Below are positions 7,685 to 35,242 of a stretch of 42,004 nucleotides of DNA, piece after piece (position 1 is the first letter of the stretch; each line of letters opens with the position of its first letter). Under the pieces are notes generated by a model. That model saw only the letters and a program-made list of their open reading frames with translations, ran no database searches and was not told the origin of the DNA. Source of the stretch: an uncultured Oscillospiraceae bacterium (GTDB lineage: Bacteria > Bacillota > Clostridia > Oscillospirales > Ruminococcaceae); the NCBI GenBank assembly GCA_964460915.1, contig CAYWRQ010000003.1, positions 1 through 42,004 on the forward strand, given 5' to 3'. A program made the translations under genes and the position numbers.

Positions 7685-10129
7685 TCAGCATTGGACCCCG
7701 CTGCGCACAGGATCCGTATGCGGCAGATTCGCCGTCGGGATTTCCGGTTTTTCGGGACGCTCCAGTACCGACGTCTTCTCTGTGATCGGCTCCCGCCGGA
7801 TCAGCACCCGGTCCAAAATCTCGTCGACATGGTGCACCGGCACAAACTCGACCTTCTCCTTGACAACGGCTTCTACCTCTTCCAGATCCTTTTGGTTCTC
7901 CCAGGGGATGAAAACCGTATGAATCCCCCGGCGGTAGGCCGCCATAGATTTCTCCCGCAGGCCGCCGATCGGCAGTACCCGGCCGTGGAGGGTAATCTCC
8001 CCGGTCATGGCCACATCGTGGCGCACCGGCTGGCCCGAAAGGGCCGAAACCAAGCAGGTCGTCATCGTCACACCGGCGGAAGGGCCGTCCTTCGGCACCG
8101 CTCCTTCGGGAGCATGGATATGAATATCGTTCTTCCGGTAAAATTCCGGATCAATATGATACCGGTCCGCAAGGCTGCGCACCAGGCTGACTGCAATCTG
8201 GGCCGATTCCGTCATCACCTCTCCCAGAGAGCCGGTTATCTGGATTTTCCCGACGCCCGGAAGGATGATCGCCTCGATCTCCATTGTCTCGCCGCCAGCC
8301 GAGGTCCAGGCAAGGCCGTTGACAACGCCGACCTGATCCTCCTGTTCCATGACCGAATCGGTATAACGCGGGATCCCGAGCAGCTCTTCCAGATTTTTCG
8401 GCGTCACACTCAGGCTTTCGGTTTCCCCGGAGACAATGCTCTTTGCAGCCTTCCGGCAGATCGAAGCCAGCTCCCGCTCCAGCTGACGGACGCCGGACTC
8501 CCTCGTATAGCTGTCAATCAAGGCGTACAGCGCCTTTTTGTTGATCTTCAGCTGCGCAGAGCTTAGGCCGTGCTTTTTCATCTGCTTGGGCAACAGATGT
8601 TTGCGGGCAATATGCCATTTTTCCTCGCGGGTATAGCTGTTCATCTCAATCAGTTCCATACGGTCCATCAGCGGGCGCGGAATCATCGAGACGTCATTGG
8701 CCGTTGTGATAAACAATACATCCGATAGGTCAAAGGGAACCTCCAGATAGTGGTCGCGGAATTCGACATTCTGTTCCGGATCCAAAACCTCCAGCATCGC
8801 CGAGCTGGGATCCCCCTTATAATCGGCGCTCATCTTATCGACCTCATCCAGCAGGATCAGCGGGTTACGGGTCCCGGCCTGCTTGATCGCGTCGATGATG
8901 CGGCCGGGCATCGACCCGAGGTAAGTCTTGCGGTGGCCGCGGATTTCCGCCTCATCCTTCACGCCGCCAAGGGAAATACGGACATATTTCCGTCCCAGCG
9001 CCTCCGCGACCGAACGGGCGACCGAGGTCTTGCCGACACCGGGAGGGCCGGCGAGGCACAGAATCTGCCCCTTGATATCCGGCGCCATCTTCCGGACCGC
9101 GATCAATTCCAGGATCCGTTTCTTGACCTTATCCATACCGTAATGGTCGCGGTTTAAAATCCTTTCAGCCCGGGCAATATCGTTATGGTCTTCGCTCATC
9201 TTATCCCAGGGGAGGTCGGTAACCGTTTCCAGATAGGTCCGGATCACCTGGCCCTCCTGCGACTGGGGCGGCGTGCGGTACAGCCGCTCGCACTCCCGAA
9301 TCAGCTTTTCGCGGGATTCGTCGGAGATGTGCTGGATACCCTGGATGAACTCGGAGAAATACATCGAGTCCTCCATCGGGGAATCCCCTTCCCCCAGTTC
9401 GGCCGAAATCACCCGCAGCTGCTCGCGCAGGAAATAATCGCGCTGGTTTTTATCCATCGAATCCTTGACCTGGTCGTAGATATCCCGCTCCCAGCCCATC
9501 ACCGAAACCTCCCGCTGCAACACGGCTACCAGCATCCCGATACGGGTTGCGAGGTCCGGCTCTTCCAAAAGCTCCTGCTTATCCTCGACCTGCAAAAACA
9601 GGCTCTGGACAATTTTATCATACATCCCCTTCGGCGTCTTCTGGGACAGTACAGCCGTTACAATCTCGTCCGGCATCTTCGGTACCATTTCCACATACTC
9701 GTCAAAGCCCCGGATCATCGCCCGCAGCATGGCCTCCTGCTGCTCATCGGTCGCGTCCAGCTGGTTGTGATCGTAAAGCCTTCTGACCTGGGCTGTATAA
9801 AACGGCCCGGAAAGGTCATAATGAATGGCTTCCGCCTTGTACAGCCCTTCCACCATTACGCGGACGGAATTTTTGCCGTTGCCCAGCATCTGGACAATCC
9901 GGGCCACAACCCCAACCGTATAGATTTCGTCTTCTTTGGGTGATTCAACCGTAAAATCCTTCTGTGCCGCGAGAAAAAGCCGCTTATCCTGTGCCATAGC
10001 TTCGCGAATGGCCTGGATAGACTGCTCTCTGTTGACATCAAAATGCAGGGTCATCGCCGGGAACATGACGATACCGCGCATAGCCAGTGCCGGGAGAATC
10101 ATCATCTGCTCTCTTCCTTCGTTTTCCAT
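7685..10129 (-). CDS. lon: ATP-dependent Lon protease
   Basis: 814 aa with a Lon N-terminal domain, Walker [10 protein letters not shown], Walker B LLDEVDK and the protease catalytic serine motif PKDGPSAGV. Confidence 0.95.
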
Positions 10130-10221
10130 AGCTGTTCCTTTCTATCTCATCGGTCATACGTACTGCAAAATTAAGTACCTCTACAGGATATGTTTCAATC
10201 CACAGAGAATGACTTAAATTC

Positions 10222-10250
10222 ATTATACTAAAGTTCCGTAAAAAATGCAA
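10222..10250 (-). promoter_or_regulatory. Sigma-A type promoter for lon
   Basis: On the minus strand: TTGCAT (10250..10245), a 17-nt spacer, then TATAAT (10227..10222). It lies about 95 nt upstream of the lon ATG. Confidence 0.6.
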
Positions 10251-10506
10251 CTGGTAGATTTCTCATACTTTGACAGATTCTGCGCCCTCTTTTCAGAAAA
10301 GCCGCTGTCTCAATTTTTACCAAACCCGCATAAACTGAAAATATCCCGAAATCCAGGGCATGATAATGCCACGCAGGCGGCAAAAACCGCTGCCTGACCG
10401 CTGCCAAAAATGCCAGGAACCGGAAAGGAACAGAGTGCGGGAGTTTCCTGCCATAGAATCGCTCTGGTTCCCGCCACCGGCGCCGTTCCTGTTCCAGACG
10501 GATAAA

Positions 10507-10538
10507 GAAAAAAGCTGTCCGGCGCGGGCAGCTTTTTT
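10507..10538. terminator. Rho-independent terminator ending the HydS signalling cassette
   Basis: Stem AGCTGTCCG / CGGGCAGCT (10513..10521 and 10525..10533) flanked by an A-run and a T-run. It begins 2 nt after the PHP gene stop. Confidence 0.8.
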
Positions 10539-10539
10539 C

Positions 10540-11259
10540 TTATTCACCATATCCATCCCGGAAGAGCCTCAAAACCTCTCCAATCGATAATTCCGCCAAT
10601 TCCATTTCCGATGCCGTATGGGCGGAGAGGACCTCCAGCGCATGGGCATCCGAATCGGTAATGATCCGATACTTCTCGTCTCCAGGCGGGACAAAACCCT
10701 TTTTGATCCCGTTCGGGCTGATCTCAACGGTCTTCACTTCCAGCTCGGGCGGAATCATGCCGAGATTGGACAAAACCGAGTAAGAGGACTTGTCGATATG
10801 CGCCGGGACCGGTACGCCGCCGTACCCGCGCACCCTCTTAAACACCTCGTTGATGGAAAAGCGGGTCGCGTTGATGAGCAGCTTGTCCAGTTCCCCGATC
10901 GGGTTATCTTCCTCATCCAAAATCCGCTGAGTGCCAAAAATATTCGGCTTGTTCCGCACCGGCGGTAGCGCCTCATAAAGCTCCTCTCCCATGGCCAGAG
11001 CCGTCTCCAAATCGGGGAAAAGGGAAAGGATATGCGCTTCCTCCGCCGTTGTAATCTCAATCGCCGGAATCAGCAGGATACCGGCCTCCTCCGTCAGCTT
11101 CTGCACAGCCGGGAGCTGACGGGCCGTATTGTGATCCGCGACGGCGATCATCGGAAGTTCCAGAATTTGTGCCATCCCTACAATATTGTTCGGCGTCATC
11201 TCCTCATCCCCGCAGGGAGAAAGGCAGGAATGGATATGCAGATCGTACGGAATCAGCAA
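10540..11259 (-). CDS. PHP-domain phosphoesterase (putative protein phosphatase of the HydS cassette)
   Basis: N-terminal DLHIHSCLSPCGD is typical of PHP metal-binding motif 1, followed by later ADHN and HID motifs. Proposed TTG start at 11259, preceded by GGAAGGAG and overlapping the upstream stop by 7 nt. The longer ORF to 11325 lies inside the upstream gene. Confidence 0.7.
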   Translation of the reverse strand: MLIPYDLHIHSCLSPCGDEEMTPNNIVGMAQILELPMIAVADHNTARQLPAVQKLTEEAGILLIPAIEITTAEEAHILSLFPDLETALAMGEELYEALPPVRNKPNIFGTQRILDEEDNPIGELDKLLINATRFSINEVFKRVRGYGGVPVPAHIDKSSYSVLSNLGMIPPELEVKTVEISPNGIKKGFVPPGDEKYRIITDSDAHALEVLSAHTASEMELAELSIGEVLRLFRDGYGE

Positions 11260-11591
11260 AGCCCCAACTCCTTCCCAAGCTTTAAAGCAACCGCAAAGCT
11301 TGGCCCATCGCTTTCGAGGACGCAAACATCCTGCTGCTCCGCACGGGAGCGGCTCATATCGTCAAAATGAATCCCTTCGCACAGGATTACACAGGCCACA
11401 TCCGCCAGTACGGCAACCGCAATCGTATTCACATTGGCCATGACCGTTACAAAGGCGTCGTTTTCCTTTGCGCGCCCCATAACCATACTGAGCAGGTCAC
11501 AGCAGTACGCGCCCTCAATCTGGCGCTCTTCCCCACAGCCAACATTCACAACCCGCAGGCCGTGTTTTTCAGCAAATTCAATTGGCGTCAT
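11253..11591 (-). CDS. Single-domain DRTGG protein (second copy)
   Basis: 112 aa. The pattern CCDLLSMVMGRAKENDAFVTVMANVNTIAVAVL...VCVLESDGPSFAVALKLG matches the stand-alone DRTGG family. The ATG at 11591 overlaps the hydS stop by 14 nt. Confidence 0.7.
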   Translation of the reverse strand: MTPIEFAEKHGLRVVNVGCGEERQIEGAYCCDLLSMVMGRAKENDAFVTVMANVNTIAVAVLADVACVILCEGIHFDDMSRSRAEQQDVCVLESDGPSFAVALKLGKELGLC

Positions 11592-12870
11592 CCGGTTTTT
11601 CCCCCTTTTCTTCCGTACGGAACGGAGCCGGTACATAATTCTTATACCGGAAAATACAATCATCAATCGACGCCAGCCCGCGCACGACGTCCTCCGCCAG
11701 CGCACGGCAGGACGGTGCACCGCAGGACCCGCAGTCCAGACCCTCCAGCGACTGGTAAATCTCCTCTACCTGCTCCATCTTCAGCATCGCTTCCCAGACA
11801 TCCTCGTCCAGTTTCAGCACCGGCACAAATTCCAGCGGCGTATCCCAATTCAGATCGCTGTCGATGATATCCGAGTTTTCCAGATGGTTTAAGCTGACCG
11901 GCAGGTGCTTCCGGATACGGTACAGCTTTGTCTTGGCAACATACGGGTTTTCAACATTCAAGACGCCGCCGACACATCCGCCCGCGCAGGCGTTCAGCTC
12001 GATAAAGTCCACGTCTCGGAACTTCTCGTCCTCCAAATCCTCCAGCACGCGGATCACGTTTTCAATGCCGTCCGCCGCCAGATAGTTGTCATTGATCAGC
12101 CCGGAGCACTCGCCGCCGCTGCTGCCCCAGGAAAGGCCGATCTTCCCGGACTCCGAAATATCCTTGGGCGAATCTTCTTTCATGAACGGGAGCAGCTTGG
12201 AATAGATATCGCTGACGGCGACAACGCCGTCTACCCAGCTCTTTTCCGTCCCCAGCGGCATTTTCGTCGCGGTCACCTTTGCCGGGCAGGGGGAGATAAA
12301 AATCGCGCCGATCTGTTCCAGCGGAAGGCCGGTTTTTTTCGCCGCCGCCCGTTTCGCCATCCGAGCCGCAACCTCAATCGGGGCGTGGAGCGGCAGTACC
12401 TGGTCGATCATCCCCGGGAAACGGACCCGGATCAGCCGCGTGACGGCCGGGCAGGCCGAACTGATAACCGGCTTTATCAGCTTACCGGAATTCATCATCT
12501 GCCTGGTGGCGGCCGAAACGATTTCCGCCGCCTTGGCTACCTCAAATACCTCGTCGAATCCAAAGTCCGTGAGCGCGTTCAGGACAATGTCCACATCTTC
12601 TAGGTTATTAAACTGCGCCATAAAGGACGGCGCGGGAAGGGCGATGGTATACGAAAAATTGTGAAGGATATCCAGACTGTCGCAGGTCGCGCGCTTTGCG
12701 TGATGCGGGCAGACCCGGATACATTCACCGCAGTCAATACATCGTTCGGCGATTATGTATGCCTTTTTGTTACGCACCCGGATCGCTTCGGTCGGACAAC
12801 GCTTGATGCAGTTGATGCACCCTTTACATCGGTCACGATCCAGCGTTACCGAGTGGAAAAACTCCTGCAT
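11578..12870 (-). CDS. hydS: Sensory-type [FeFe]-hydrogenase homologue (HydS-like, no PAS domain)
   Basis: N-terminal 2x[4Fe-4S] ferredoxin motifs (CKGCINCIKRCP, CIDCGECIRVCP). The H-domain motifs are variant: SSACP in place of TSCCP, SPCPAK in place of MPCxxK, and ACAGGCVGG in place of CxxGCxxGGG. A C-terminal CGSCGAPSC-x16-C motif is present. AGGAGG lies 8 nt before the ATG. Confidence 0.8.
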   Translation of the reverse strand: MQEFFHSVTLDRDRCKGCINCIKRCPTEAIRVRNKKAYIIAERCIDCGECIRVCPHHAKRATCDSLDILHNFSYTIALPAPSFMAQFNNLEDVDIVLNALTDFGFDEVFEVAKAAEIVSAATRQMMNSGKLIKPVISSACPAVTRLIRVRFPGMIDQVLPLHAPIEVAARMAKRAAAKKTGLPLEQIGAIFISPCPAKVTATKMPLGTEKSWVDGVVAVSDIYSKLLPFMKEDSPKDISESGKIGLSWGSSGGECSGLINDNYLAADGIENVIRVLEDLEDEKFRDVDFIELNACAGGCVGGVLNVENPYVAKTKLYRIRKHLPVSLNHLENSDIIDSDLNWDTPLEFVPVLKLDEDVWEAMLKMEQVEEIYQSLEGLDCGSCGAPSCRALAEDVVRGLASIDDCIFRYKNYVPAPFRTEEKGEKPDDAN

Positions 12871-12943
12871 AATAAGTACCTCCTGTTCTATATAAAATAG
12901 GGAAAGAGCGTATTCCCCTCTGTCATTTTTTCAAAAGAATCGA

Positions 12944-12968
12944 CTGCCTCCCGGTCTTAGGGAGGCAG
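12944..12968 (-). other. Intra-operon hairpin between the kinase gene and hydS
   Basis: Perfect 9-bp stem CTGCCTCCC / GGGAGGCAG with a 7-nt loop. On the minus strand it is followed by TCGATTCTTTTG. Confidence 0.5.
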
Positions 12969-13002
12969 AAGCGATACGAAAGTTTATATCAATCAGAACC
13001 AA

Positions 13003-13440
13003 TCATGCTTTTGCCGACTTTCCGATATAGACGGTCATATAAACCGTCGTACCGACGCCAACCGTGGATTCAATCCGCATTTCATCCGTATTTTTTTTCA
13101 TATTCGGCAGGCCCATGCCCGCGCCGAAGCCAAGCGAACGCACTTCATCCGCCGCCGTGGACCAGCCGGCCTGCATCGCCTGCTCGATGTCGGGAATTCC
13201 CTTCCCTTTGTCCGCCAGGATCATATCGATCCGGTCTGGGGACATTTCAATTGTAATGGTACCGCCTTTGGCATGGATGACCATGTTGATCTCCCCTTCA
13301 TACAGGGCGATCGATACCTTGCGAATCACCTCGGACGAGACGCCGAGCGCCCGCAGCTTTTTCTTCAAATTGGAAGAAGCCTCACCGGCACGGGTAAAAT
13401 CGCTGCCGTCTACCTCATACACCCACTTGAGCGCGCTCAT
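13003..13440 (-). CDS. RsbW/SpoIIAB-like serine protein kinase (HATPase_c-only, anti-sigma-factor type)
   Basis: 145 aa with N-box EGEINMVIHA, G1 DKGKGI and G2 GFGAGMGLPN. The ATG at 13440 is preceded by GGGGAGGGA and overlaps the upstream DRTGG gene by 26 nt. Confidence 0.75.
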   Translation of the reverse strand: MSALKWVYEVDGSDFTRAGEASSNLKKKLRALGVSSEVIRKVSIALYEGEINMVIHAKGGTITIEMSPDRIDMILADKGKGIPDIEQAMQAGWSTAADEVRSLGFGAGMGLPNMKKNTDEMRIESTVGVGTTVYMTVYIGKSAKA

Positions 13441-13798
13441 CTGATTTCCCTCCCCGCAGACCGTTTTCCCAAAGCAGCCCGCAGGCTGTAAACATACGGT
13501 GGTGGGTCGAGAGCAAAACCATCCCCCGCCGCTGTGCCAACGCAATCATATCTTCATCCGGCTTCTTGCCCCGGACGAAGACAATACATACCATATCCAT
13601 CATATCCGCCGTACGGACGGTCTGGATATTGACCAGGCCCGTCAGCAGCACCGCCTGATCCTTCACATAGGCCAGCACGTCGCTCATCATGTCGGAACCG
13701 CATGCCTCATGGACCTCCGTATCCAGACAATCCTCTCCACAAATGATCTCCGCATCCAAAACACGCATTACATCCTGAACATTCATTGAAATACTCAT
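13415..13798 (-). CDS. Single-domain DRTGG protein (first copy)
   Basis: 127 aa. The pattern GSDMMSDVLAYVKDQAVLLTGLVNIQTVRTA...VLLSTHHRMFTACGLL is typical of small DRTGG proteins. The start could be the ATG at 13798 or the ATG four codons downstream. Confidence 0.7.
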   Translation of the reverse strand: MSISMNVQDVMRVLDAEIICGEDCLDTEVHEACGSDMMSDVLAYVKDQAVLLTGLVNIQTVRTADMMDMVCIVFVRGKKPDEDMIALAQRRGMVLLSTHHRMFTACGLLWENGLRGGKSDERAQVGV

Positions 13799-13980
13799 TC
13801 CTTTCTCGTTTTACTGGGTATATGCCCCTACCCTATGGGGAATTTCAAATCCCGTTTCCAGATACAAATCGATTTTCCGCTGCCGCAAACGTACCATGCC
13901 CATATGTAGTCTCGTACAGCATATGCCATATAATTTTCTATATGGGCTGATTTAATAAAAATCTTTTTGTACTGCTTACT

Positions 13981-14009
13981 ATTATATACGATTTCCTGAA
14001 TATATGCAA
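13981..14009 (-). promoter_or_regulatory. Candidate promoter of the HydS cassette
   Basis: On the minus strand: TTGCAT (14009..14004), a 17-nt spacer, then TATAAT (13986..13981). This implies a leader of about 175 nt. Confidence 0.55.
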
Positions 14010-14104
14010 TAGATTTAATGACCATAAAAACTTTTTTGTCAAACCTGTTCAAAATTTAACGGAAAGGTTGTATAACCATAATACTAGAATTTCTCAAAAA
14101 GTTA

Positions 14105-14113
14105 TGGTATACT
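14105..14113 (+). promoter_or_regulatory. Candidate extended -10 promoter of the hydrogenase structural operon
   Basis: TGgTATACT at 14105..14113 with no good -35. This implies a leader of about 115 nt. Confidence 0.4.
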
Positions 14114-14236
14114 TATATAAAAGCATATGTGTATTTCGACCATAGAAGTGCCGTTGCTTGCCGGACAACCGACGTGGTGGCCGGCGTTCTTTTCGGTTAT
14201 GTATCCCCGCATTCAAACCATAAGGAGGTTTATCTT

Positions 14237-14734
14237 ATGTCCAACAAAAAGCCCGGCGTCCTTTTTAAGGATACACCGGAACAAAAGCAGAAACTCGAAG
14301 AGATCATCGCGGCGCACAAAGACCAGCCCGGTGCGCTGATGCCGATCCTTCAACAGGCACAGGAGCTGTACGGATATCTTCCCATTGAGATCCAGACCAC
14401 CATTGCACAGGCCTTGGATATCCCGCTGGAAGAGGTATACGGCGTTGTAACCTTTTACGCGCAGTTCTCCCTCTATCCCAAGGGACAGTATAAGATTTCC
14501 GTATGTCTGGGCACCGCCTGCTATGTAAAAGGCTCCGGCACCATTTATGATAAGCTTCAGCAGATCCTTGGCATCAGCGGCGGCGAGTGCACACCGGACG
14601 GCAAGTTTTCGCTGGAGGCGTGCCGTTGCGTCGGCGCTTGCGGCCTTGCTCCCGTTATGACCGTCAACGACGAGGTTTTTGGTAAGCTCGTTCCCGACGA
14701 TATCGAGGGGATCCTCGCGAAATTCGGCGCTTAA
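14237..14734 (+). CDS. hydC: NuoE-like [2Fe-2S] subunit of NAD(H)-linked [FeFe]-hydrogenase (HydC)
   Basis: Thioredoxin-like 2Fe-2S motifs CLGTAC and CRCVGAC. The ATG at 14237 is preceded by AAGGAGG. The upstream part of ORF 14129..14734 has no RBS. Confidence 0.88.
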   Translation: MSNKKPGVLFKDTPEQKQKLEEIIAAHKDQPGALMPILQQAQELYGYLPIEIQTTIAQALDIPLEEVYGVVTFYAQFSLYPKGQYKISVCLGTACYVKGSGTIYDKLQQILGISGGECTPDGKFSLEACRCVGACGLAPVMTVNDEVFGKLVPDDIEGILAKFGA

Positions 14735-14758
14735 TTTTCTAGAAAGGACTGTGCCGTT

Positions 14759-15301
14759 ATGCAGGAACTCTCTTTAAATGTTTTGGATATTGCACAGAAT
14801 TCGGTCCGTGCCAAAGCGTCTTTGGTAACGATCTCTGTAACACAGCGCACAAGCGACCACTACTTGGAGATTTCTATTGCTGATGACGGCTGCGGTATGT
14901 CGGAAGAACAGGTTGCCCGGGTAATTGATCCGTTTTTTACAACCCGTACGACCCGTAAGGTTGGACTTGGCGTCTCTTTCTTTAAAATGTCGGCAGAGGC
15001 CACCGGAGGCGATTTTTCCATCCAATCGAAGCTTGGCAAGGGCACCGTTACGACTGCCAGCTACCATACCGATCACATCGATATGCTGCCGATTGGCGAT
15101 ATGAACGAGACCATCCATACCCTAATCACGATGAATCCCGATATGGATTTTGTTTATCAGCGTACGCTGGATGATAAAACCTTTACTTTGGATACCCGGG
15201 AGCTGAAAGCGGTTCTCGAAGATATCCCCCTCAATTCTCCTGAGGTTTCCCTCTTTATTCAGGAAACCCTGGCAGAAGGGGAAGCGGAATTAACGACTTA
15301 G
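14759..15301 (+). CDS. HATPase_c-only protein (histidine-kinase-like ATPase without a sensor or His-phosphotransfer domain) embedded in the hydrogenase operon
   Basis: N-box-like LDIAQNSVRA, G1 DDGCGM and G2 GLGVSF, followed by a roughly 75-aa C-terminal region I do not recognise. Confidence 0.75.
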   Translation: MQELSLNVLDIAQNSVRAKASLVTISVTQRTSDHYLEISIADDGCGMSEEQVARVIDPFFTTRTTRKVGLGVSFFKMSAEATGGDFSIQSKLGKGTVTTASYHTDHIDMLPIGDMNETIHTLITMNPDMDFVYQRTLDDKTFTLDTRELKAVLEDIPLNSPEVSLFIQETLAEGEAELTT

Positions 15302-15324
15302 TATACAGAAAGGATAGATTTGTT

Positions 15325-15705
15325 ATGAAGAGTTTGGAAGAACTTAGAGCAATTCGGGATCGCGCGAAAAACGGCGTGCATCTGCGGAAAGAAAATTCTC
15401 CCGACAGCATCCGTGTCGTCGTCGGTATGGCGACCTGCGGTATCGCCGCCGGTGCAAGACCGGTTTTGACCGCGTTTACCAATGAGGTAGCCAAACGGGA
15501 TTTGCAAAATGTTATGGTTACCCAGACTGGATGCATTGGCCTTTGCCAGTATGAACCCATCGTTGAGGTGTATGAGCCCGACGGAAAAGTAACCACTTAT
15601 GTAAAAATGAACGCGGATAAGGTTGGACGCATTGTTACCGAGCATCTGGTCAACGGAAATGTTGTTGATGAATACACCATCGGCAGTCTCGGCAAATTAA
15701 AATAA
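15325..15705 (+). CDS. Small thioredoxin-like ferredoxin-fold subunit (HydD-like)
   Basis: 126 aa. It resembles the N-terminal 2Fe-2S domain of HydB (GCIGLCQYEP versus GCFGLCALGP) but contains only three Cys in total. Confidence 0.65.
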   Translation: MKSLEELRAIRDRAKNGVHLRKENSPDSIRVVVGMATCGIAAGARPVLTAFTNEVAKRDLQNVMVTQTGCIGLCQYEPIVEVYEPDGKVTTYVKMNADKVGRIVTEHLVNGNVVDEYTIGSLGKLK

Positions 15706-15717
15706 GGAGGCAACTTC

Positions 15718-17508
15718 ATGTATCGTTCTCATGTCCTGGTTTGTGGAGGCACTGGGTGTTCCTCTTCCAACAGCCAGCAAATCATCGACGCACTGGAAAC
15801 TGAAATCGCCGCAGCCGGTCTGTCCGACGAAGTTAAAGTCGTAAAAACCGGTTGCTTTGGCTTGTGTGCACTCGGCCCGATTATGATTATCTATCCGGAA
15901 GGCTCCTTCTATTCGGAAGTCAAGCCCTCCGACGTTCCGGAAATTGTCCAGGAGCATCTGCTCAAAGGCCGTATTGTAAAACGTCTGCTTTACCAAGAGA
16001 CCGTTCAGGAAAGCAACAACGTCAAATCCCTGAACGAGACGCAGTTCTATGCAAAACAGAACCGTGTCGCACTGCGCAACTGCGGCGTTATCAACCCTGA
16101 AAACATTGAAGAATACATAGCTGTTGACGGTTATGCGGCTCTGGGCAAGGTTCTGACCGAAATGACCCCCCAGCAGGTTATCGACACCATCCTCGCTTCC
16201 GGCCTGCGCGGACGCGGCGGCGCTGGCTTCCCAACCGGCAGAAAATGGGCTTTTGCCGCTGCAAACCAGGCTGACCAGAAGTACGTCTGCTGCAACGCCG
16301 ACGAAGGCGACCCCGGTGCGTTCATGGACCGTTCCGTCCTGGAAGGCGACCCCCATGTTGTATTGGAAGCAATGGCAATCGCAGGCTACGCAATCGGTGC
16401 TTCTCAGGGCTATATCTATGTCCGTGCAGAGTACCCGATCGCTGTTCACCGCCTGCAGATCGCAATCAAACAGGCAAGAGAATACGGCCTTTTGGGCAAG
16501 GATATCTTCGGCACCGGCTTTGACTTTGACATCGACCTCCGTCTCGGCGCCGGCGCATTCGTCTGCGGCGAGGAAACCGCTCTGATGACCTCGATCGAAG
16601 GCCACCGCGGCGAACCCCGTCCCCGTCCTCCCTTCCCTGCCGTTAAAGGCCTGTTCCAGAAACCCACCATTCTGAACAACGTTGAGACCTACGCAAACGT
16701 TCCGCGCATCATCCTCAACGGCGCAGACTGGTTTGCTTCGATGGGTACGGAAAAGTCCAAGGGCACGAAGGTATTCGCCCTGGGTGGCAAGATCAACAAC
16801 ACTGGCCTGGTCGAAGTTCCGATGGGCACCACCCTGCGCGAGATCGTCGAAGAAATCGGCGGCGGCATCCCCAACGGCAAGAAATTCAAGGCGGCGCAGA
16901 CCGGCGGTCCTTCCGGCGGATGCATCCCGGCCGAGCACCTCGATATCCCGATCGACTATGACAACCTGATCTCGATCGGCTCGATGATGGGCTCCGGCGG
17001 CCTGATTGTTATGGACGAGGACACCTGTATGGTCGATATTGCGAAGTTCTTCCTCGAATTCACTGTCGACGAATCCTGCGGTAAGTGTACTCCCTGCCGA
17101 GTCGGTACCAAGAGATTGTATGAGATGCTTGATAAGATTACCCGTGGTGAAGCAACCATGGAGGATCTTGATAAACTGGAAGAACTCTGCTATTACGTAA
17201 AAAATAATTCTTTGTGTGGCCTCGGCCAGACTGCCCCGAACCCGATCCTGTCTACCCTGCGGTACTTCCGCGATGAATATGTCGCGCATATTGTAGACAA
17301 GACTTGCCCGGCAGGCGTCTGCAAGCACCTGATGAAATACACCATTGATCCTGCCAAGTGTAAGGGGTGTACGCTTTGTGCACGCAACTGCCCTGTCGGC
17401 GCAATCAGCGGTACAGTCAAACAGCCTCATGTCATCGATTCGGCTAAGTGCATCAAGTGCGGAGCCTGCATGGAGAAGTGCAGATTCGGCGCGATCAGCA
17501 AGAAATAA
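15718..17508 (+). CDS. hydB: NuoF-like FMN/NAD(H)-binding subunit of [FeFe]-hydrogenase (HydB)
   Basis: N-terminal 2Fe-2S motifs (VCGGTGC, GCFGLC), FMN site GRGGAGFPTGRKW, CNADEGDPGAF, 4Fe-4S motif ESCGKCTPCR and a C-terminal 2x[4Fe-4S] region (CKGCTLCARNCP, CIKCGACMEKC). Confidence 0.93.
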   Translation: MYRSHVLVCGGTGCSSSNSQQIIDALETEIAAAGLSDEVKVVKTGCFGLCALGPIMIIYPEGSFYSEVKPSDVPEIVQEHLLKGRIVKRLLYQETVQESNNVKSLNETQFYAKQNRVALRNCGVINPENIEEYIAVDGYAALGKVLTEMTPQQVIDTILASGLRGRGGAGFPTGRKWAFAAANQADQKYVCCNADEGDPGAFMDRSVLEGDPHVVLEAMAIAGYAIGASQGYIYVRAEYPIAVHRLQIAIKQAREYGLLGKDIFGTGFDFDIDLRLGAGAFVCGEETALMTSIEGHRGEPRPRPPFPAVKGLFQKPTILNNVETYANVPRIILNGADWFASMGTEKSKGTKVFALGGKINNTGLVEVPMGTTLREIVEEIGGGIPNGKKFKAAQTGGPSGGCIPAEHLDIPIDYDNLISIGSMMGSGGLIVMDEDTCMVDIAKFFLEFTVDESCGKCTPCRVGTKRLYEMLDKITRGEATMEDLDKLEELCYYVKNNSLCGLGQTAPNPILSTLRYFRDEYVAHIVDKTCPAGVCKHLMKYTIDPAKCKGCTLCARNCPVGAISGTVKQPHVIDSAKCIKCGACMEKCRFGAISKK

Positions 17509-17617
17509 TCAGGGAAAAAAGTTTATTGTCTTTGCCGGTCAATCGGCATGACCGGTAGCCTGTCCCAGCCTAGCTTGGCGCCGACAGGCAAGCAAAAACG
17601 GAAAGGAACATGAGAAG

Positions 17618-19360
17618 ATGATAAATCTAAAAATCAATAATATCCCTATCTCTGTCGAGCCTGGCACCACTATCTTGGAAGCCGCCCGTCAGCTGGGTAT
17701 CAATATTCCCACCCTTTGTTACCTTAAGGACATCAACGAAATCGGTGCTTGCAGAATCTGCACCGTTGAGGTAAAGAATGCCAAGGGTTTGCTCCCTGCT
17801 TGTGTTTACCCGGTAAACGAAGGAATGGAAGTATTCACTAATTCCATAAAGGTTCTCGACGCCCGTAAGAAAAACCTTGAGTTGCTGCTTTCTGTGCATC
17901 ATAAGGAATGTTTGTCCTGTCCCAGAAGTGGCAGCTGTGAATTCCAGAAGCTGTGCAACGATTACGGCATCTCTGATGAACATGTTTATGAAGGCGTGAA
18001 AAATGAATATGAAATCGATGACAGCGCTGTTCACATGATCCGTGACAATTCCAAGTGTGTACTTTGTCGCCGTTGTGTAGCTGTATGTCGGAAGTATCAG
18101 GATTGCGGCGTCATTGGCCCAATCGATCGTGGTTTCCAGACCCACATTGGTTCTGCTTTCGAGCAGAACCTGGCTGATGTTGCTTGCGTATCCTGCGGTC
18201 AGTGCATTGCTGCTTGCCCCACTGGCGCTCTTCAAGAAAAAGATTCCACTGACAAGGTTTGGGCTGCCCTGTCCGATCCGACCAAAACTGTTATCGTTCA
18301 GACTGCCCCTGCGGTCAGGGTCGGACTTGGTGAATCGTTTGGCCTGCCAATGGGTACCAATGTTGAAGGCAAGATGGTGGCTGCTCTCCGTCGTATCGGT
18401 TTTACAAAGGTATTTGATACCGTTTTTGGCGCGGATCTGACAATCATGGAAGAAGCAAATGAACTGGTCGAAAGAATTAAAACTGGCGGCGTTCTTCCGA
18501 TGATCACTTCTTGCAGCCCTGGTTGGGTTAAGTACTGCGAATACTACTTCCCTGATCTGATTCCGAACCTGTCCACAACTAAATCGCCTCAGCAGATATT
18601 CGGTGCAACTGTAAAAACTTGGTATGCGGAAAAAATGGGGATAGATCCTAAGAATATTGTTGTTGTTTCCATCATGCCCTGCACCGCTAAGAAATTCGAG
18701 ATCGGCCGTGACGATCAGAACGCTGCCGGTGTTCCCGACGTCGATATCTCGCTGACCACCAGAGAACTGGCGAAGATGATCAAGGCTTCCGGCCTGGACT
18801 TCAACCTCCTGCCCGATGAAGATTTCGACGCGCCTCTGGGCCTTGGCGCCGGTGCTGGCGTTATCTTCGGCGCAACCGGCGGCGTTATGGAGGCTGCTCT
18901 CCGTACCGCAAACGACTGGCTCACCGGTACCGATACGCCTGCTGAAAAGATGGACTTCACCGCTGTACGCGGCACCGAAGGCATCAAAGAAGCGACTTAT
19001 ACCGTCGGCGGCGTAACCCTCAAGGTTGCGATCTGCTCCGGCCTGGCAAACGCGAAGAAGCTGCTGACTGCGATCCGCAACGGCGAAGCAGATTATCAGT
19101 TTGTCGAAGTCATGGCTTGCCCCGGAGGCTGTGTCAACGGCGGCGGCCAACCCTTCGTTCCGGCTTCGGTCAAGAACTTTGTCAATGTTCGCGCGATCCG
19201 TGCGAAAGGCCTGTACAGCGAAGATGAGGCGCTTACGATCCGTAAATCCCATCAGAATCCCTCGATCATTGAACTGTACAACGATTACCTTGGCACTCCC
19301 GGCAGCGAAAAGGCTCACCACCTGTTGCATACCTCTTACGTTCCCCGCAAGAGATACTAA
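17618..19360 (+). CDS. hydA: [FeFe]-hydrogenase catalytic subunit (HydA, CpI-like M3 architecture)
   Basis: N-terminal 2Fe-2S domain, His-ligated cluster motif HKECLSCPRSGSC and 2x[4Fe-4S] motifs (CVLCRRCVAVC, CVSCGQCIAACP). H-cluster motifs are TSCSPGW (variant), MPCTAKKFE and EVMACPGGCVNGGGQP. Confidence 0.93.
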   Translation: MINLKINNIPISVEPGTTILEAARQLGINIPTLCYLKDINEIGACRICTVEVKNAKGLLPACVYPVNEGMEVFTNSIKVLDARKKNLELLLSVHHKECLSCPRSGSCEFQKLCNDYGISDEHVYEGVKNEYEIDDSAVHMIRDNSKCVLCRRCVAVCRKYQDCGVIGPIDRGFQTHIGSAFEQNLADVACVSCGQCIAACPTGALQEKDSTDKVWAALSDPTKTVIVQTAPAVRVGLGESFGLPMGTNVEGKMVAALRRIGFTKVFDTVFGADLTIMEEANELVERIKTGGVLPMITSCSPGWVKYCEYYFPDLIPNLSTTKSPQQIFGATVKTWYAEKMGIDPKNIVVVSIMPCTAKKFEIGRDDQNAAGVPDVDISLTTRELAKMIKASGLDFNLLPDEDFDAPLGLGAGAGVIFGATGGVMEAALRTANDWLTGTDTPAEKMDFTAVRGTEGIKEATYTVGGVTLKVAICSGLANAKKLLTAIRNGEADYQFVEVMACPGGCVNGGGQPFVPASVKNFVNVRAIRAKGLYSEDEALTIRKSHQNPSIIELYNDYLGTPGSEKAHHLLHTSYVPRKRY

Positions 19361-19372
19361 TTTTATAAATCG

Positions 19373-19403
19373 AATGGCTCCCGGTTTCGGCCGGGGGCCA
19401 TTT
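19373..19403 (+). terminator. Rho-independent terminator after hydA
   Basis: Stem AATGGCTCCCGG / CCGGGGGCCATT with one G-U pair, followed by TTTGTCTGT. Confidence 0.7.
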
Positions 19404-19505
19404 GTCTGTCCGGAAAGGCAGGACGGCCCGGAATAAAAGCCGGATGTACACTCCTCTGTAAATGATTGCCGGATTTTTTGTCCATGAAAATTTACAAAAT
19501 CCATG

Positions 19506-19534
19506 TTGGAAGAAAATATTTACTGCGTTATACT
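19506..19534 (+). promoter_or_regulatory. Candidate promoter of the MarR gene
   Basis: TTGGAA (19506..19511), a 17-nt spacer, then TATACT (19529..19534). The palindrome-containing motif GGTTAGCTAA (19544..19553) sits at the predicted transcript start. Confidence 0.5.
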
Positions 19535-19578
19535 ATTGACTAAGGTTAGCTAAATAATGCTGAAAAGGGGGCAAAACG

Positions 19579-20007
19579 ATGGATTACGCGTTATTAGCAG
19601 ACGAGTTAATCCGGTATATAATTCGGCTGCGGTTCACCGAAGTGAATCGCTGCATTGACGACAATATCCGTGGAGAGCCTTTTATTTTAGCCCATGTCTA
19701 TCATGCTCACTCTGCCCTTCCCGGCGAATTGGCCGCAGCTATGCAGACTTCGACTGCATATGTGGCCAAGGTCCTGCGGGGACTGGAGGAAAAAGGGCTG
19801 ATCTGCCGCACACTGGATACCCACGACCGCAGGCGGATCCTGGTTACCCTGACAGATAAAGGGATCCGGCAGGCGGAAATGAACGAGCAGTTTGTCAAGG
19901 CAAAAACACAGCAGATGCTTGAAAATCTGGGCGCGGAAGATGCTTTGGCACTGATCCGTATCTTGAAAAAGATTTCGGGTGCCTTGGCTGAAGCACATTC
20001 CTCATAA
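19579..20007 (+). CDS. MarR family transcriptional regulator
   Basis: 142 aa with a winged-HTH region (LPGELAAAMQTSTAYVAKVLRGLEEKGLICRTLDTHDRRRILVTLTDKG). Confidence 0.85.
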   Translation: MDYALLADELIRYIIRLRFTEVNRCIDDNIRGEPFILAHVYHAHSALPGELAAAMQTSTAYVAKVLRGLEEKGLICRTLDTHDRRRILVTLTDKGIRQAEMNEQFVKAKTQQMLENLGAEDALALIRILKKISGALAEAHSS

Positions 20008-20118
20008 GCAGCACCGCAAACGGCAGCTGGAAAGCTGCCTATTTAAAAGGAAAAATGCTAACCTTTTTAGCTAACTTTGTTCATATTCTTCATGTTTTCG
20101 TCATAAGGAGGTTACACA

Positions 20119-21879
20119 ATGCTCAAACTGTTTAAACGGCTGAATGGGCGGGAATGGGCCATGGCGGGCGCTTGTCTCGTCTTTATTGTCGGGCAGGTCT
20201 GGCTGGATTTACGGCTGCCGGAATACATGAGCGAGATCACCAAGCTGGTGCAGACGGAAGGCAGCAAAATGGCGGATGTCTTGCTTGCCGGCGGAAAAAT
20301 GCTTCTCTGTGCGCTGGGAAGTATGTCGCTGGCCGTACTCACCGGTTTTTTTACCGCAATCATTGCATCAACCCTGACCCGGAATCTGCAAAGCGAGATT
20401 TACCACAAGGTCCTCTCCTTCTCTTCCGAAGAAATGGGACGCTTTTCGACCGCCAGCCTGATCACCCGTTCAACCAACGACGTCAACCAGATTCAGATGA
20501 TCGTGGCGATGGGGATGCAGCTGGTCTTGAAAGCGCCGATCATGGCGGTCATGGCCATTGCCAAAATCCAGGATAAAGGCAGCTGGCAATGGACTGCGCT
20601 TACCGGCGGCGCCGTTTTGGTCCTTCTGACCCTGATTCTGGTTTTGATGTGTTATGCCCTGCCGAAGTTCAAGCGGATCCAGGGCCTGACCGATAATCTC
20701 AACCGGATTACCCGCGAAAACCTGACCGGCCTGCGGGTTGTCCGCGCGTACAACGCCGAAGCCTACCAGGAAGGCAAATTCACAAAGGCCAACCGCGAGC
20801 TGACGGAAAACAACTTAAAAGCACAAAGGGCTTTGGTCTGCACCAACCCGGTCATGAACATGGTTATGAATGGGCTGACCCTGGGGATTTACTGGATCGG
20901 TGCATATTTGATCAACAGCGCCGGGATGCAGGAAAAGCTGGACATCTTCTCCAACATGGTAGTCTTTTCCTCATATGCCATGCAAGTTATCATGTCCTTT
21001 ATTATGGTCGCCATGATTTTCGTCATGCTGCCCCGTGCGTTGGTTTCGGCAAAACGTATCCTTGAGGTTTTGGAAACGCAGCCGGCCCTGAAAAACGGGG
21101 AGAATGACGGAAAAACCGAGAAGACCGGCGAAATTGAATTCCAAAATGTCAGCTTTCGTTATCCGGATGCCGACCAGGACGTTTTGCAGGACATTTCCTT
21201 TACGGCAAAGCGCGGCGAAACCGTTGCCTTTATCGGCGCGACCGGCTCGGGCAAGACGACCCTTGTCAACCTGATCCCCCGGCTTTACGATGTCCGTGCC
21301 GGCCGGGTCTTGGTTGACGGGATCGATGTCCGCGCGTACGATATCAAGGCGCTGCGGAACAAGCTCGGGTACGTTTCCCAGAAGGCGGTTTTGTTTGCCG
21401 GAAATATCCGCAGCAATATCACCCTCGGCGACAACGGGCGGGAATCCCCCGACGATGCCGGTATCGAAACCGCCATCGACATCGCCCAGGGCAGCGATTT
21501 CGTAGACGGCATTCCCGAAGGGATTGACGGTATGGTCGCGCAAAACGGCGCCAATTTTTCCGGCGGCCAGAAGCAGCGCCTCTCCATCGCCCGTGCGATC
21601 GCCCGCAAACCGGAAATCTACATCTTCGACGATTCCTTCTCCGCCCTGGACTATAAGACCGACCGAACGCTGCGTACCCGGCTGAAACAGGAAACGGCCG
21701 GTGTCACGACGCTGATTGTTGCCCAGCGGATTGGCACGATTCTGGACGCGGACAAAATCGTTGTCCTTGAGGACGGAAAAGCGGTCGGCATCGGAACCCA
21801 TCACGAGCTGCTGAAAACCTGCCCAGTATACCAGGAAATCGCCGCATCCCAGCTTTCAAAGGAGGAACTTGAACGATGA
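20119..21879 (+). CDS. ABC exporter half-transporter (TMD-NBD), degenerate-site partner
   Basis: Walker A GATGSGKTT and signature FSGGQ. Walker B is IYIFDDS, with Asp where the catalytic Glu normally sits. The switch region is IVAQR, with Gln in place of His. AAGGAGG lies upstream. Confidence 0.88.
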   Translation: MLKLFKRLNGREWAMAGACLVFIVGQVWLDLRLPEYMSEITKLVQTEGSKMADVLLAGGKMLLCALGSMSLAVLTGFFTAIIASTLTRNLQSEIYHKVLSFSSEEMGRFSTASLITRSTNDVNQIQMIVAMGMQLVLKAPIMAVMAIAKIQDKGSWQWTALTGGAVLVLLTLILVLMCYALPKFKRIQGLTDNLNRITRENLTGLRVVRAYNAEAYQEGKFTKANRELTENNLKAQRALVCTNPVMNMVMNGLTLGIYWIGAYLINSAGMQEKLDIFSNMVVFSSYAMQVIMSFIMVAMIFVMLPRALVSAKRILEVLETQPALKNGENDGKTEKTGEIEFQNVSFRYPDADQDVLQDISFTAKRGETVAFIGATGSGKTTLVNLIPRLYDVRAGRVLVDGIDVRAYDIKALRNKLGYVSQKAVLFAGNIRSNITLGDNGRESPDDAGIETAIDIAQGSDFVDGIPEGIDGMVAQNGANFSGGQKQRLSIARAIARKPEIYIFDDSFSALDYKTDRTLRTRLKQETAGVTTLIVAQRIGTILDADKIVVLEDGKAVGIGTHHELLKTCPVYQEIAASQLSKEELER

Positions 21880-23654
21880 AGCCAATGAAAATGAAGAAAA
21901 TGTCTCCCTCCTCCCCTCCTTCCAAAGAAGGTCTGATGAAGCTTTACGCTTTCTGCAAAAAATACCTCTACGCAATTATCATTGCGCTGGTATGCGCCGC
22001 CGGCAGCGCCATCTTTACGATCATCGGCCCGAATAAAATCCAGAATCTGACCGATACGATCACCGCCGGGATGCTGAGCGGGATCAACATGGACGAGGTA
22101 ACTCGGATCTGTATCACCCTTGTCCTGATGTACGGCAGCTCGGCGCTGTTAAACTTTATCCAATCCCAGCTGATGACAACGACGACCCAGCGCATCTCCC
22201 AAAGCCTGCGGGAGGAAATCAGCCATAAGATCAACCGCCTCCCCATCGGCTATTACAACAAAACGACCTTCGGAGACGTTTTGTCCCGCGTCACCAACGA
22301 TGTCGATACCATAGGAGAAACCTTCCAGCGCAGCATTGTTACGCTGATTTCTTCGGTTATTCTGTTGATCGGCTGCCTGATTATGATGTTTAAGACCAAC
22401 TGGATTATGACCGTTTCCGCGATTCTCGCCTCCCTGATCGGCTTCGTCCTGATGATCCTGATCATGGGCCGGTCGCAGCGGTACTTTATCGCCCGCCAGC
22501 AAGGGCTTGGCGACCTCAACGGCCATATCGAAGAGGCTTTCTCCGGACACACGGTTCTCCGGGCCAGCAACGCCGAGGAGCAGTTTATAAAGCGCTTTGA
22601 GGTGCTCAACAACAAGCTGTACAGCACCAGCTGGAAATCCCAATTCCTCTCCGGGCTGATGCAGCCGCTGATGGGCTTTATCGGCAACTTTGGATACGTG
22701 ACCGTCTGCGTCGTCGGCGCGGCCCTCGTGATAAACGGAAACATCACCTTTGGCGTGATTGTGGCGTTTATGCTCTACGTCCGCCTATTTTCCAATCCTC
22801 TCTCCCAGATCGCACAGGCCGCGACCAGCCTGCAGTCCGCCGCTGCCGCATCCGGGCGGGTATTCGAATTCCTGGACGCGGAGGAAATGGCGGACGAAAG
22901 CGGCAAAACCGCTTTGCTGTCCAACCCCACCGGCCAGGTCACCTTTTCCCATGTCCGGTTCGGTTATGAGCCTGACCGGATGATCATCCACGACTTTTCC
23001 CAGCAGGTGAAACCCGGCCAAAAGGTTGCCATCGTCGGCCCGACCGGCGCAGGCAAGACGACGCTCGTCAACCTGCTGATGCGCTTTTACGAGTTAAACG
23101 GCGGCAGTATCTCGCTCGACGGGATCGACCTCTCCTCACTGACCCGGCAAAATGTGCACGGGCTGTTTGGCATGGTGCTGCAGGATACCTGGCTGTTTGA
23201 AGGAACCATCCGGGACAATATTGTCTACGGCAAAGAAGGCATCACCGATGAAGATCTCGACCGGGTCACCAAGGCCGTCGGCTTGTACCACTATATCCAT
23301 ACAATGCCCAACGGGTACGACACGGTGATCGACTCCCGCACCAACCTTTCGGAAGGGCAAAAGCAGCTTTTGACGATTGCCCGTGCAATGATCGAAAACG
23401 CGCCGATGCTGATCCTCGATGAAGCGACCTCGTCGGTCGATACCCGCACCGAAATCCTGATCCAGCGGGCGATGGATAAGCTGACCGAAGGGCGTACCTC
23501 CTTCGTCATTGCCCACCGGCTGTCGACCATCAAAAACGCCGATGTGATCCTTGTCCTCCGCGACGGCGATATCGTCGAAAGCGGCAGCCATCAGCAACTG
23601 CTGGACAAGGGTGGCTTCTACGCGGAGCTTTACAACGCGCAGTTTGCCGGCTAA
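21876..23654 (+). CDS. ABC exporter half-transporter (TMD-NBD), consensus-site partner
   Basis: Walker A GPTGAGKTT, Walker B LILDEATS and switch IAHR. The signature is LSEGQ rather than LSGGQ. The ATG overlaps the upstream stop (ATGA). Confidence 0.88.
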   Translation: MKPMKMKKMSPSSPPSKEGLMKLYAFCKKYLYAIIIALVCAAGSAIFTIIGPNKIQNLTDTITAGMLSGINMDEVTRICITLVLMYGSSALLNFIQSQLMTTTTQRISQSLREEISHKINRLPIGYYNKTTFGDVLSRVTNDVDTIGETFQRSIVTLISSVILLIGCLIMMFKTNWIMTVSAILASLIGFVLMILIMGRSQRYFIARQQGLGDLNGHIEEAFSGHTVLRASNAEEQFIKRFEVLNNKLYSTSWKSQFLSGLMQPLMGFIGNFGYVTVCVVGAALVINGNITFGVIVAFMLYVRLFSNPLSQIAQAATSLQSAAAASGRVFEFLDAEEMADESGKTALLSNPTGQVTFSHVRFGYEPDRMIIHDFSQQVKPGQKVAIVGPTGAGKTTLVNLLMRFYELNGGSISLDGIDLSSLTRQNVHGLFGMVLQDTWLFEGTIRDNIVYGKEGITDEDLDRVTKAVGLYHYIHTMPNGYDTVIDSRTNLSEGQKQLLTIARAMIENAPMLILDEATSSVDTRTEILIQRAMDKLTEGRTSFVIAHRLSTIKNADVILVLRDGDIVESGSHQQLLDKGGFYAELYNAQFAG

Positions 23655-35093: not shown

Positions 35094-35242
35094 ATGCATC
35101 CTTCTTCCGTTTAATTTTACCTTTGCGGCTGCACTCATACACTCCAAAACGTACGGGGAAACAGCCTGCCGTAACAGACTCGTTTCCCCGCGTGCATCCC
35201 GCTATTCAATCCATGTGCCGAACCAGCGCATACCATCATTAT

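Follow-up and report, generated by a model that had tools for sequence, protein, structure and literature searches.

Putative sensory hydrogenase loci and the locus considered here

The closest described systems to the locus considered here are the gene clusters around Group D (M2e) putative sensory [FeFe] hydrogenases, or HydS. Genes of the M2e type lie next to A1-type bifurcating HydABC operons, and near protein kinases, in Clostridium thermocellum, Caldicellulosiruptor, Caldanaerobacter, Thermoanaerobacter and C. phytofermentans (Carere et al., 2012; PMC3561251). The locus itself belongs to a 42-kb stretch of DNA from an uncultured Oscillospiraceae bacterium (contig CAYWRQ010000003.1, the whole stretch being called the window below), in which genes were called from a list of open reading frames (ORFs) together with Pfam and NCBIfam profile searches. 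Five minus-strand genes at 10540-13798 encode a small DRTGG-domain protein (DRTGG1), a SpoIIAB/RsbW-type kinase, HydS, a second DRTGG protein (DRTGG2) and a PHP-family phosphoesterase (Table 1). With moderate confidence, we consider that these five genes form a conserved accessory cassette of a Group D putative H2-sensing [FeFe] hydrogenase, that is, an autonomous signalling module which usually travels with a HydABC-type NADH/ferredoxin hydrogenase operon.

The described Group D loci, which include TamHydS of Thermoanaerobacter mathranii as well as Cthe_0335, TTE0887, Athe_1292, Csac_1857, Cphy_3798 and Teth39_1463, resemble the window closely. In each, HydS stands beside a bifurcating HydABC with a kinase-like ATPase next door, and the protein has the same architecture, with two [4Fe-4S] clusters, no proton-relay cysteine, a C-terminal four-cysteine motif and no PAS domain. 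The gene-number offsets in the survey of Carere et al. also fit the order HydS-DRTGG2-PHP-NuoE-HATPase and onwards (PMC3561251). The cassette in the window is divergent from hydABC rather than upstream and co-directional, but otherwise nothing essential differs; the locus is a typical, very common Group D HydS locus of a type already known. A literature search on DRTGG in connection with hydrogenases found no paper mentioning the DRTGG or PHP genes of the Group D loci.

The initial annotation had compared the locus with the hfs operon of Thermoanaerobacterium saccharolyticum and with the HydS loci of Thermotoga and Ruminococcus, and this comparison has to be corrected. Those loci (hfsABCD of Thermoanaerobacterium, and the loci of Thermotoga maritima and Ruminococcus albus) belong to Group C (M2f). 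Like the window, they combine a degenerate [FeFe] hydrogenase bearing a C-terminal cluster with linkage to protein kinase/phosphatase genes and to a catalytic hydrogenase, and for hfsB a regulatory role has genetic evidence in the literature. However, Group C HydS has a PAS domain and the hfs operon includes HfsC, a serine-phosphatase homologue, whereas the window cassette has no PAS domain, encodes two DRTGG proteins in addition and, instead of a serine-phosphatase homologue, contains a PHP phosphoesterase. The Group C loci are therefore analogous, not orthologous, to the cassette.

The window HydS begins with two [4Fe-4S] motifs (Fer4 families at residues 8-58), continues with the H-domain (Fe_hyd_lg_C, E 5e-28) and ends in a Cx2Cx4Cx16C cluster (PF04060 at 375-407); no PAS family was matched by Pfam over its 430 residues. 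In an alignment of homologues the H-cluster cysteines C140 (SSACP), C195 (SPCPAK) and C295/C299 (ELNACAGGC) are invariant, as are C380, C383, C388 and C405 of the C-terminal cluster. The canonical group-A L1 motif is TSCC. Motif L1 of the window protein reads SSAC, so that the proton-relay cysteine (equivalent to C299 of CpI) is lost; motif L2 reads SPC instead of MPC, replacing the M353 equivalent, and the M497-equivalent position is occupied by Asn, where TamHydS has Leu. As these motifs, the C-terminal cluster, the PAS-less architecture and the position beside a bifurcating HydABC fit the published definition of the class (PMC8163306; PMC13104023), HydS is assigned by domains and motifs to Group D (M2e). 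A search of the PDB with HydS returned no Group C or Group D structure, the best matches being Group A/B enzymes at E about 1e-22. In the alignment, the window protein lacks about 14 residues near its C-terminus (11578-11660 region) that are present in most homologues.

Conservation and layout of the cassette

HydS has at least 8000 database relatives at E<=1e-20. A survey of the gene neighbourhoods of HydS homologues, which the initial annotation had proposed, was made with one genome per species; at least 600 loci matched the pattern, at least 591 were confirmed by tblastn, and the best 80 of those were analysed (56-86% HydS identity; counts out of 81 include the window). The order DRTGG1-kinase-HydS-DRTGG2-PHP is present in all 80, with PHP displaced a few kb upstream in one, and the arrangement is therefore far from chance. 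The loci come from Oscillospiraceae, Lachnospiraceae, Clostridiaceae and others, the closest being those of Ca. Faecivivens and Ca. Merdivicinus metagenome-assembled genomes (82-86% HydS identity). Genes for HydABC, a HATPase protein and a ferredoxin are adjacent in 59-65 of the 81 loci, depending on the gene counted, and are either divergent, as in the window, or co-directional downstream of PHP.

Neighbouring genes in the cassette overlap by 26 nt (DRTGG1/kinase, 13415-13440), 14 nt (HydS/DRTGG2, 11578-11591) and 7 nt (DRTGG2/PHP, 11253-11259). These overlaps had been given exactly, and a Shine-Dalgarno sequence can be read before the downstream start at every one of the three. The positions and order of the genes had also been given correctly, as ORFs and Pfam agree, but not all five are tightly packed, for a spacer separates the kinase gene from that of HydS. 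This pattern is general. Across the 81 loci the distance is 0 nt or less at 75% of DRTGG1/kinase junctions, 51% of HydS/DRTGG2 junctions and 62% of DRTGG2/PHP junctions; the kinase/HydS junction has a gap in 96% of loci (0 nt or less in 4%), with a median of 40 nt. Because kinase and HydS are almost always gapped while the other junctions often are not, the cassette consists of two translationally coupled sub-blocks, DRTGG1 with the kinase and HydS with DRTGG2 and PHP, and is not one block.

The kinase/HydS junction is variable in content as well. Close relatives (L002, L004, L005) have inserted ORFs there (e.g. DUF6199), and GC hairpins are found at the junction in L009 and L016. In the window the spacer contains a terminator-like 9-bp hairpin at 12968..12944, with seven G-C pairs and followed by TTCTTT, and a second, weaker hairpin at 12919..12899. 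A conserved attenuator at this position was considered and rejected, as the spacer sequence differs among relatives. The hairpin past the PHP stop codon (Table 1) was read by eye and was not reported by an automatic hairpin scan, and an Rfam scan of 9800-20200 at E<=1 matched no RNA family.

The facing operon had been described as hydC-hydB-hydA. These three genes are present on the plus strand, but the operon is larger, with five genes including those of a stand-alone HATPase_c protein and of a ferredoxin (Table 1). About 80 C-terminal residues of the stand-alone HATPase are without a family match. Its gene is present wherever a related locus reaches the neighbouring NuoE/NuoF genes, and lies at the boundary between the cassette and NuoE in all gene arrangements seen. 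The HATPase is a probable sixth member of the signalling set, and had been overlooked.

The kinase, the DRTGG proteins and the PHP enzyme

Profile-HMM searches found the expected family in each of the five proteins, with DRTGG2 falling below the PF07085 cut-off. The description of the kinase as RsbW-like is borne out in sequence and fold. Its best NCBIfam matches are SpoIIAB (spIIAB, E 4.5e-16) and RsbW, its PDB matches are the SpoIIAB and RsbW structures 1l0o, 1til and 6m36, and the N-box, G1 and G2 motifs of the ATP-binding site are kept invariant across orthologues.

DRTGG1 and DRTGG2 are paralogues as judged from the alignment of the two families (hhalign probability 98.3%, E 1.2e-14), and the small protein that follows HydS in distant lineages scores as DRTGG2. 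The PDB matches of the domain are 3l2b/3l31 (CBS-pyrophosphatase) and 2ioj. Among 78-81 orthologues, DRTGG1 is marked by the motifs CGSDMMSDVLA, LLTGLxNxQ and FVRGK and by conserved cysteines C33, C71 and C106; the canonical 'TGG' is replaced by RGK and the 'DR' apparently by LxN, the latter position lying beyond the partial alignment. A D-[LM]-[LM]-S-D-V motif and a downstream Thr are common to DRTGG1, DRTGG2 and the fusion proteins described below, with the Ser and the Thr invariant, and an AlphaFold2 (AF2) model of a fusion places the motif Ser at a helix N-terminus. The conserved cysteines of DRTGG1, together with an invariant one in the PHP enzyme, may be metal, Fe-S or redox sites.

When DRTGG1 was used to search the full protein library, and one of the resulting fusion proteins was then used as query, natural fusions of DRTGG1 to the kinase were found in other lineages. 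These are proteins of about 270 aa with DRTGG1 at the N-terminus, a linker of 15-30 residues and the kinase at the C-terminus; the search with one fusion gave at least 119 further clusters matching over the full length at 44-80% identity, and the source names include Thermoanaerobacterales and Aminicenantales. The AF2 model (pLDDT 86, pTM 0.77) is disordered in the linker only. In Foldseek its C-terminal half superposes on SpoIIAB and RsbW with TMt 0.75-0.85 (SpoIIAB 0.83) and its N-terminal half on the DRTGG domains of CBS-pyrophosphatase and AF1212. HPr kinase/phosphorylase (1ko7) is also among the Foldseek matches, and Hpr_kinase_N is matched in Pfam. Since the two proteins are fused in nature, Rosetta-stone evidence strongly supports the view that DRTGG1 and the kinase work as one unit, and the N-terminal position of DRTGG1 suggests an adaptor or input domain of the kinase more than a substrate.

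Two known kinase systems invite comparison. In the SpoIIAB-SpoIIAA-SpoIIE and RsbW-RsbV-RsbU modules the kinase is homologous to that of the window in sequence, fold and ATP-binding motifs, and the cassette resembles these modules in having a kinase gene coupled in translation to that of a small alpha/beta protein, with a phosphoesterase encoded in the same cluster. In contrast to them, it has no STAS antagonist, PP2C phosphatase or sigma factor, and the small partner is a DRTGG domain, often fused N-terminally to the kinase. HPr kinase/phosphorylase, like the fused forms, has a DRTGG-like N-terminal domain followed by a Ser kinase acting on a small protein, but the kinase domains are unrelated (P-loop versus GHKL).

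The initial annotation proposed an H2-gated partner switch in which the two DRTGG proteins, as free STAS-like phospho-substrates, are written by the RsbW-like kinase and erased by the PHP enzyme. Much of what has just been described is consistent with this, namely the SpoIIAB/RsbW-like kinase, the STAS-like size and small alpha/beta build of the DRTGG proteins, the Ser and Thr invariant in both paralogues and in the fusions, and the partnership of DRTGG1 with the kinase seen in coupling and fusions. The same fusions, however, place DRTGG1 where a sensor domain would be, and a tethered substrate cannot switch partners. The scheme also needs an eraser and an output: the nearest relatives of the PHP enzyme are nucleases and nucleotide phosphoesterases, with no match annotated as a protein phosphatase among those listed; both DRTGG proteins, the kinase and HydS persist in a lineage without PHP (L081); and in the cassette and the window neither a sigma factor nor any other output that might be sequestered was found. 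We consider a partner switch of this form unlikely.

The PHP enzyme retains its catalytic residues. The metal ligands H8, H10, D42, H43, E68, E73, H76, H154, D204 and H206 are invariant (73 and 50 sequences), as is C16, which lies within a three-residue 'PCG' insert after HxH relative to RNase AM; the region of residues 12-18 reads H-S-C-L-S-P-C-G-D. A PDB profile search matched RNase AM, EndoQ, BAD_1165, Cv1693, TM0559 and PolC. Foldseek on the AF2 model (pLDDT 94, pTM 0.92) gave the same ranking, with EndoQ, BAD_1165, RNase AM and TM0559 at the top and Cv1693 and the Pol III PHP domain also matched. Histidinol phosphatases were matched at E about 0.03 only, and no match annotated as a protein phosphatase, the CpsB/YwqE type included, was found at E<=1 in the profile search or among the 50 Foldseek matches listed. 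The window enzyme has the fold of the EndoQ, RNase AM (TrpH/YciV), Cv1693 and TM0559 branch (TMq 0.55-0.69) and keeps the HxH...D...H...E...H...H...DxH metal ligands, but is shorter (239 aa), has no Zn-ribbon or insertion domain and adds the invariant Cys. By relatedness it thus resembles a nuclease or nucleotidase, and its proposed role in erasing protein phosphorylation finds no support in homology.

These affinities could suggest a different circuit, in which PHP degrades a phosphodiester or nucleotide messenger or an RNA 5' end, the DRTGG proteins are ligand receptors, and the GHKL protein is an ATPase or clamp and not a protein kinase. EndoQ, RNase AM, BAD_1165 and Cv1693, the last a pAp phosphatase, are the closest to PHP in both fold and profile; DRTGG domains occur in nucleotide-regulated enzymes such as CBS-pyrophosphatase and resemble the N-terminal domain of HPr kinase, and phosphate might be bound by the conserved Ser/Asp motif, which the model puts at the N-terminal end of a helix. 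Yet the cassette has no messenger cyclase or synthetase, DRTGG domains come without a demonstrated ligand, and the kinase keeps every SpoIIAB-type catalytic motif, and we regard such a circuit as improbable.

Rex, the proposed signalling route and its weighing

The cassette had been said to contain no STAS protein, sigma factor, response regulator or helix-turn-helix (HTH) protein, and this remains so with the flanks included. None was found in the cassette or the scanned long ORFs of the window, except for a MarR-like gene, nor did a STAS protein, a PP2C phosphatase (SpoIIE/RsbU) or a sigma factor turn up there or among the conserved neighbours at the 80 loci. The MarR-like gene is probably unrelated to the cassette, since such an ORF is present in five of the 81 loci only and without a fixed position. 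Clustering of unassigned flank ORFs in the 80 loci gave no recurrent regulator; the recurrent neighbours are a SerC-like aminotransferase (by N-terminal sequence) and a 2-hydroxyacid dehydrogenase (Pfam), each in 17 loci.

A candidate output is suggested by the control regions of relatives. Of 63 loci, 21 have Rex-type operators (TTGTTAAnnnnTTAACAA, up to two mismatches) upstream of hydC, where shuffling predicts 0.45, and k-mer enrichment in 42 divergent spacers returned just ribosome-binding-site and -10/-35-like words plus the Rex half-site. In co-directional loci the operators stand between PHP and hydC, which would imply a separate, Rex-controlled hydABC promoter. The rex gene itself (Put_DNA-bind_N + CoA_binding) abuts the fusion gene as first gene of the cassette on three Thermoanaerobacterales-like contigs representing two fusion lineages (L083:3224-3853, L084:7372-8001, L088:6372-7001). 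Published proposals make both Rex and HydS regulators of hydrogenase expression in R. albus, and give the Hnd hydrogenase a Rex site and a role for HydS; in T. saccharolyticum, a Rex site is predicted ahead of a gene for a 'PHP domain protein'. Given the enrichment of Rex boxes upstream of hydC in relatives and the co-operonic rex of some lineages, Rex is a plausible unlinked DNA-binding output and likely part of the circuit.

Two gene orders surround the fusion in these distant lineages, namely rex / fusion / HydS / DRTGG2 / PHP / NuoE / HATPase / Fdx / NuoF / HydA, and HdrCBA-like / fusion / HydS / DRTGG2 / PHP / HATPase / NuoE / Fdx / NuoF and onwards. In the environmental contigs L085-L087 and L089 (about 4.6-16.8 kb), the fusion cassette lies between HdrCBA-like genes and a NuoE/NuoF/NuoG-like set, which in L085 and L086 is followed by FlpD and a [NiFe] small-subunit gene. 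Because of these HdrCBA, FlpD and [NiFe] contexts, the cassette would seem to associate with flavin-based bifurcating complexes in general. A further arrangement, in L081:7611-14855, is DRTGG2 / fusion / HydS / NuoE / NuoF / molybdopterin (formate-dehydrogenase-like) subunit, with neither PHP nor the HATPase.

For a H2-sensing cassette of this kind the following route may be proposed. HydS would bind H2 at a slow H-cluster devoid of the proton-relay cysteine and change conformation. Coupling of HydS to the kinase would fall to the DRTGG paralogues, acting as adaptors in the way suggested by the dimerising DRTGG domains of CBS-pyrophosphatases, with DRTGG1 as the input domain of the kinase and DRTGG2 or an external protein as the phospho-acceptor. 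The kinase would then phosphorylate or sequester a protein encoded outside the cassette, most likely either Rex, a redox repressor, or HydABC together with the partner HATPase, and PHP would reset the system by acting on a substrate that could be a phosphoprotein or a nucleotide. A bolder version, which we think quite unlikely, is a new kind of partner switch through which redox gene control would respond to H2 partial pressure. In it the kinase would bind or phosphorylate not a sigma factor but Rex, as the repressor that senses NADH, or the HydABC/HATPase complex; the DRTGG paralogues would replace STAS antagonists and dock on HydS, and a PHP enzyme of the nuclease branch would have been recruited as the resetting phosphatase. 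If true, a signal path would for the first time be defined for an [FeFe] 'sensory' hydrogenase, and RsbW-type kinases and PHP enzymes would each gain a new substrate class.

Several observations weigh against an H2-sensing module that accompanies HydABC. Seven of the 80 loci show no HydABC nearby, with 5.5 kb or more of sequence to either side of the cassette; because of these loci the cassette is an autonomous unit. PHP and the HATPase are not obligatory, as both are missing in L081. The window itself has no Rex box by the cassette and no rex gene in its 42 kb: with three mismatches allowed, the single match to the Rex operator is a chance-level one at 4311, far from the cassette, with none in the divergent spacer, and rex is also absent from the flanks of the 80 related loci. 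In TamHydS the C-terminal cluster is unresponsive to H2 (PMC13104023), and Group D is still listed as functionally undefined in a survey of 2024 in Cell.

That HydS is no sensor but a slow catalytic or electron-transfer partner, with the small proteins serving assembly, maturation or repair of HydABC, is favoured by this last survey, by the low-rate activity (PMC8163306; PMC13104023) and H2-unresponsive cluster of TamHydS, and by tight linkage to NuoE/NuoF-type complexes, non-hydrogenase ones included (L081, L085), but has little to recommend it given that a SpoIIAB-type kinase and a histidine-kinase catalytic (CA) domain are signalling parts and not maturases, that HydS has lost its proton-relay cysteine (SSACP), that, among loci with sufficient sequence to either side, about 10% have the cassette apart from HydABC, and that the literature describes HydABC(D) enzymes, once purified, as trimeric HydABC or tetrameric HydABCD complexes.

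The signalling module described above thus stays the reading we favour. The initial annotation had called the signalling route unresolved, in line with a paper of 2026 according to which the interaction partners of this enzyme class are still to be identified (PMC13104023), and the gene set names concrete candidates for these partners. The picture is sharpened in that the kinase and DRTGG1 would form a physical unit, the paralogue DRTGG2 travels with HydS, PHP appears to be of nuclease or nucleotidase type, and the HATPase and Rex are likely parts of the circuit. H2 is a thermodynamically limiting product for fermenting anaerobes and couples them to methanogens and acetogens. The module is found in hundreds of gut, rumen and biofuel-relevant Clostridia, and an understanding of it would bear on H2 and ethanol yields and on the hydrogen economy of the rumen or gut.

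The divergent region and other features of the window

The region between the cassette and hydC is, as had been reported, a 438-bp AT-rich spacer, and no inverted repeats or palindromes were found in it. Its inferred promoters are given in Table 1; relative to L001, L004 and L006, the window cassette has about 140 nt of extra 5' leader.

Table 1. Positions of the cassette, the divergent region and the facing operon in the window.
Feature	Position	Strand	Details
DRTGG1, small DRTGG-domain protein	13415-13798	-	127 aa; PF07085 at 31.1 bits (cut-off 25.2)
SpoIIAB/RsbW-type GHKL serine kinase / anti-sigma-like ATPase	13003-13440	-	145 aa; HATPase_c_2, E 5.8e-10
Kinase-HydS spacer	12871-13002	-	132 nt; two hairpins and the HydS Shine-Dalgarno sequence
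HydS, Group D (M2e) putative sensory [FeFe] hydrogenase	11578-12870	-	430 aa; two Fer4, Fe_hyd_lg_C, PF04060
DRTGG2, paralogue of DRTGG1	11253-11591	-	112 aa; PF07085 at 23.7 bits, slightly below the cut-off
PHP-family metal-dependent phosphoesterase	10540-11259	-	239 aa; TTG start after GGAAGGAG; PF02811
Intrinsic-terminator-like hairpin GCTGcCCGcgcCGGaCAGC	10508-10538	-	directly past the PHP stop codon; A-run and T-run on its flanks
Divergent control region	13799-14236	.	438 bp; 37% GC vs about 55% for the window
Inferred cassette promoter	-35 TTGCAT 14009-14004, -10 TATAAT 13986-13981	-	17-nt gap; conserved in L001, L004, L006
Inferred hydC promoter, extended -10 TGgTATACT	14104-14112	+	from comparison with close relatives
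hydC, NuoE-like [2Fe-2S] subunit	14237-14734	+	PF01257, E 2.3e-51; ATG at 14237
Stand-alone histidine-kinase catalytic (CA) domain protein	14759-15301	+	180 aa; HATPase_c, E 6e-16; no DHp domain
Small thioredoxin-like [2Fe-2S] ferredoxin, HydD-like	15325-15705	+	Pfam / NCBIfam
hydB, NuoF-like FMN/NAD subunit	15718-17508	+	Complex1_51K, NADH_4Fe-4S
hydA, Group A catalytic [FeFe] hydrogenase	17618-19360	+	Fe_hyd_lg_C, E 6e-100; Fe_hyd_SSU
MarR-like regulator	19579-20007	+	precedes two ABC exporter genes; sole HTH found in the window

The MarR-like gene and two fused ABC exporter genes (19579-23654, plus strand) lie immediately downstream of hydA. Further away, the anaerobic ribonucleotide reductase NrdD and its activase NrdG are encoded at 34566-37573 on the minus strand, and genes for TrkA/TrkH, a MATE pump, Lon protease, AroE, NIF3 and MurA elsewhere in the window complete an ordinary housekeeping context of a strict anaerobe.

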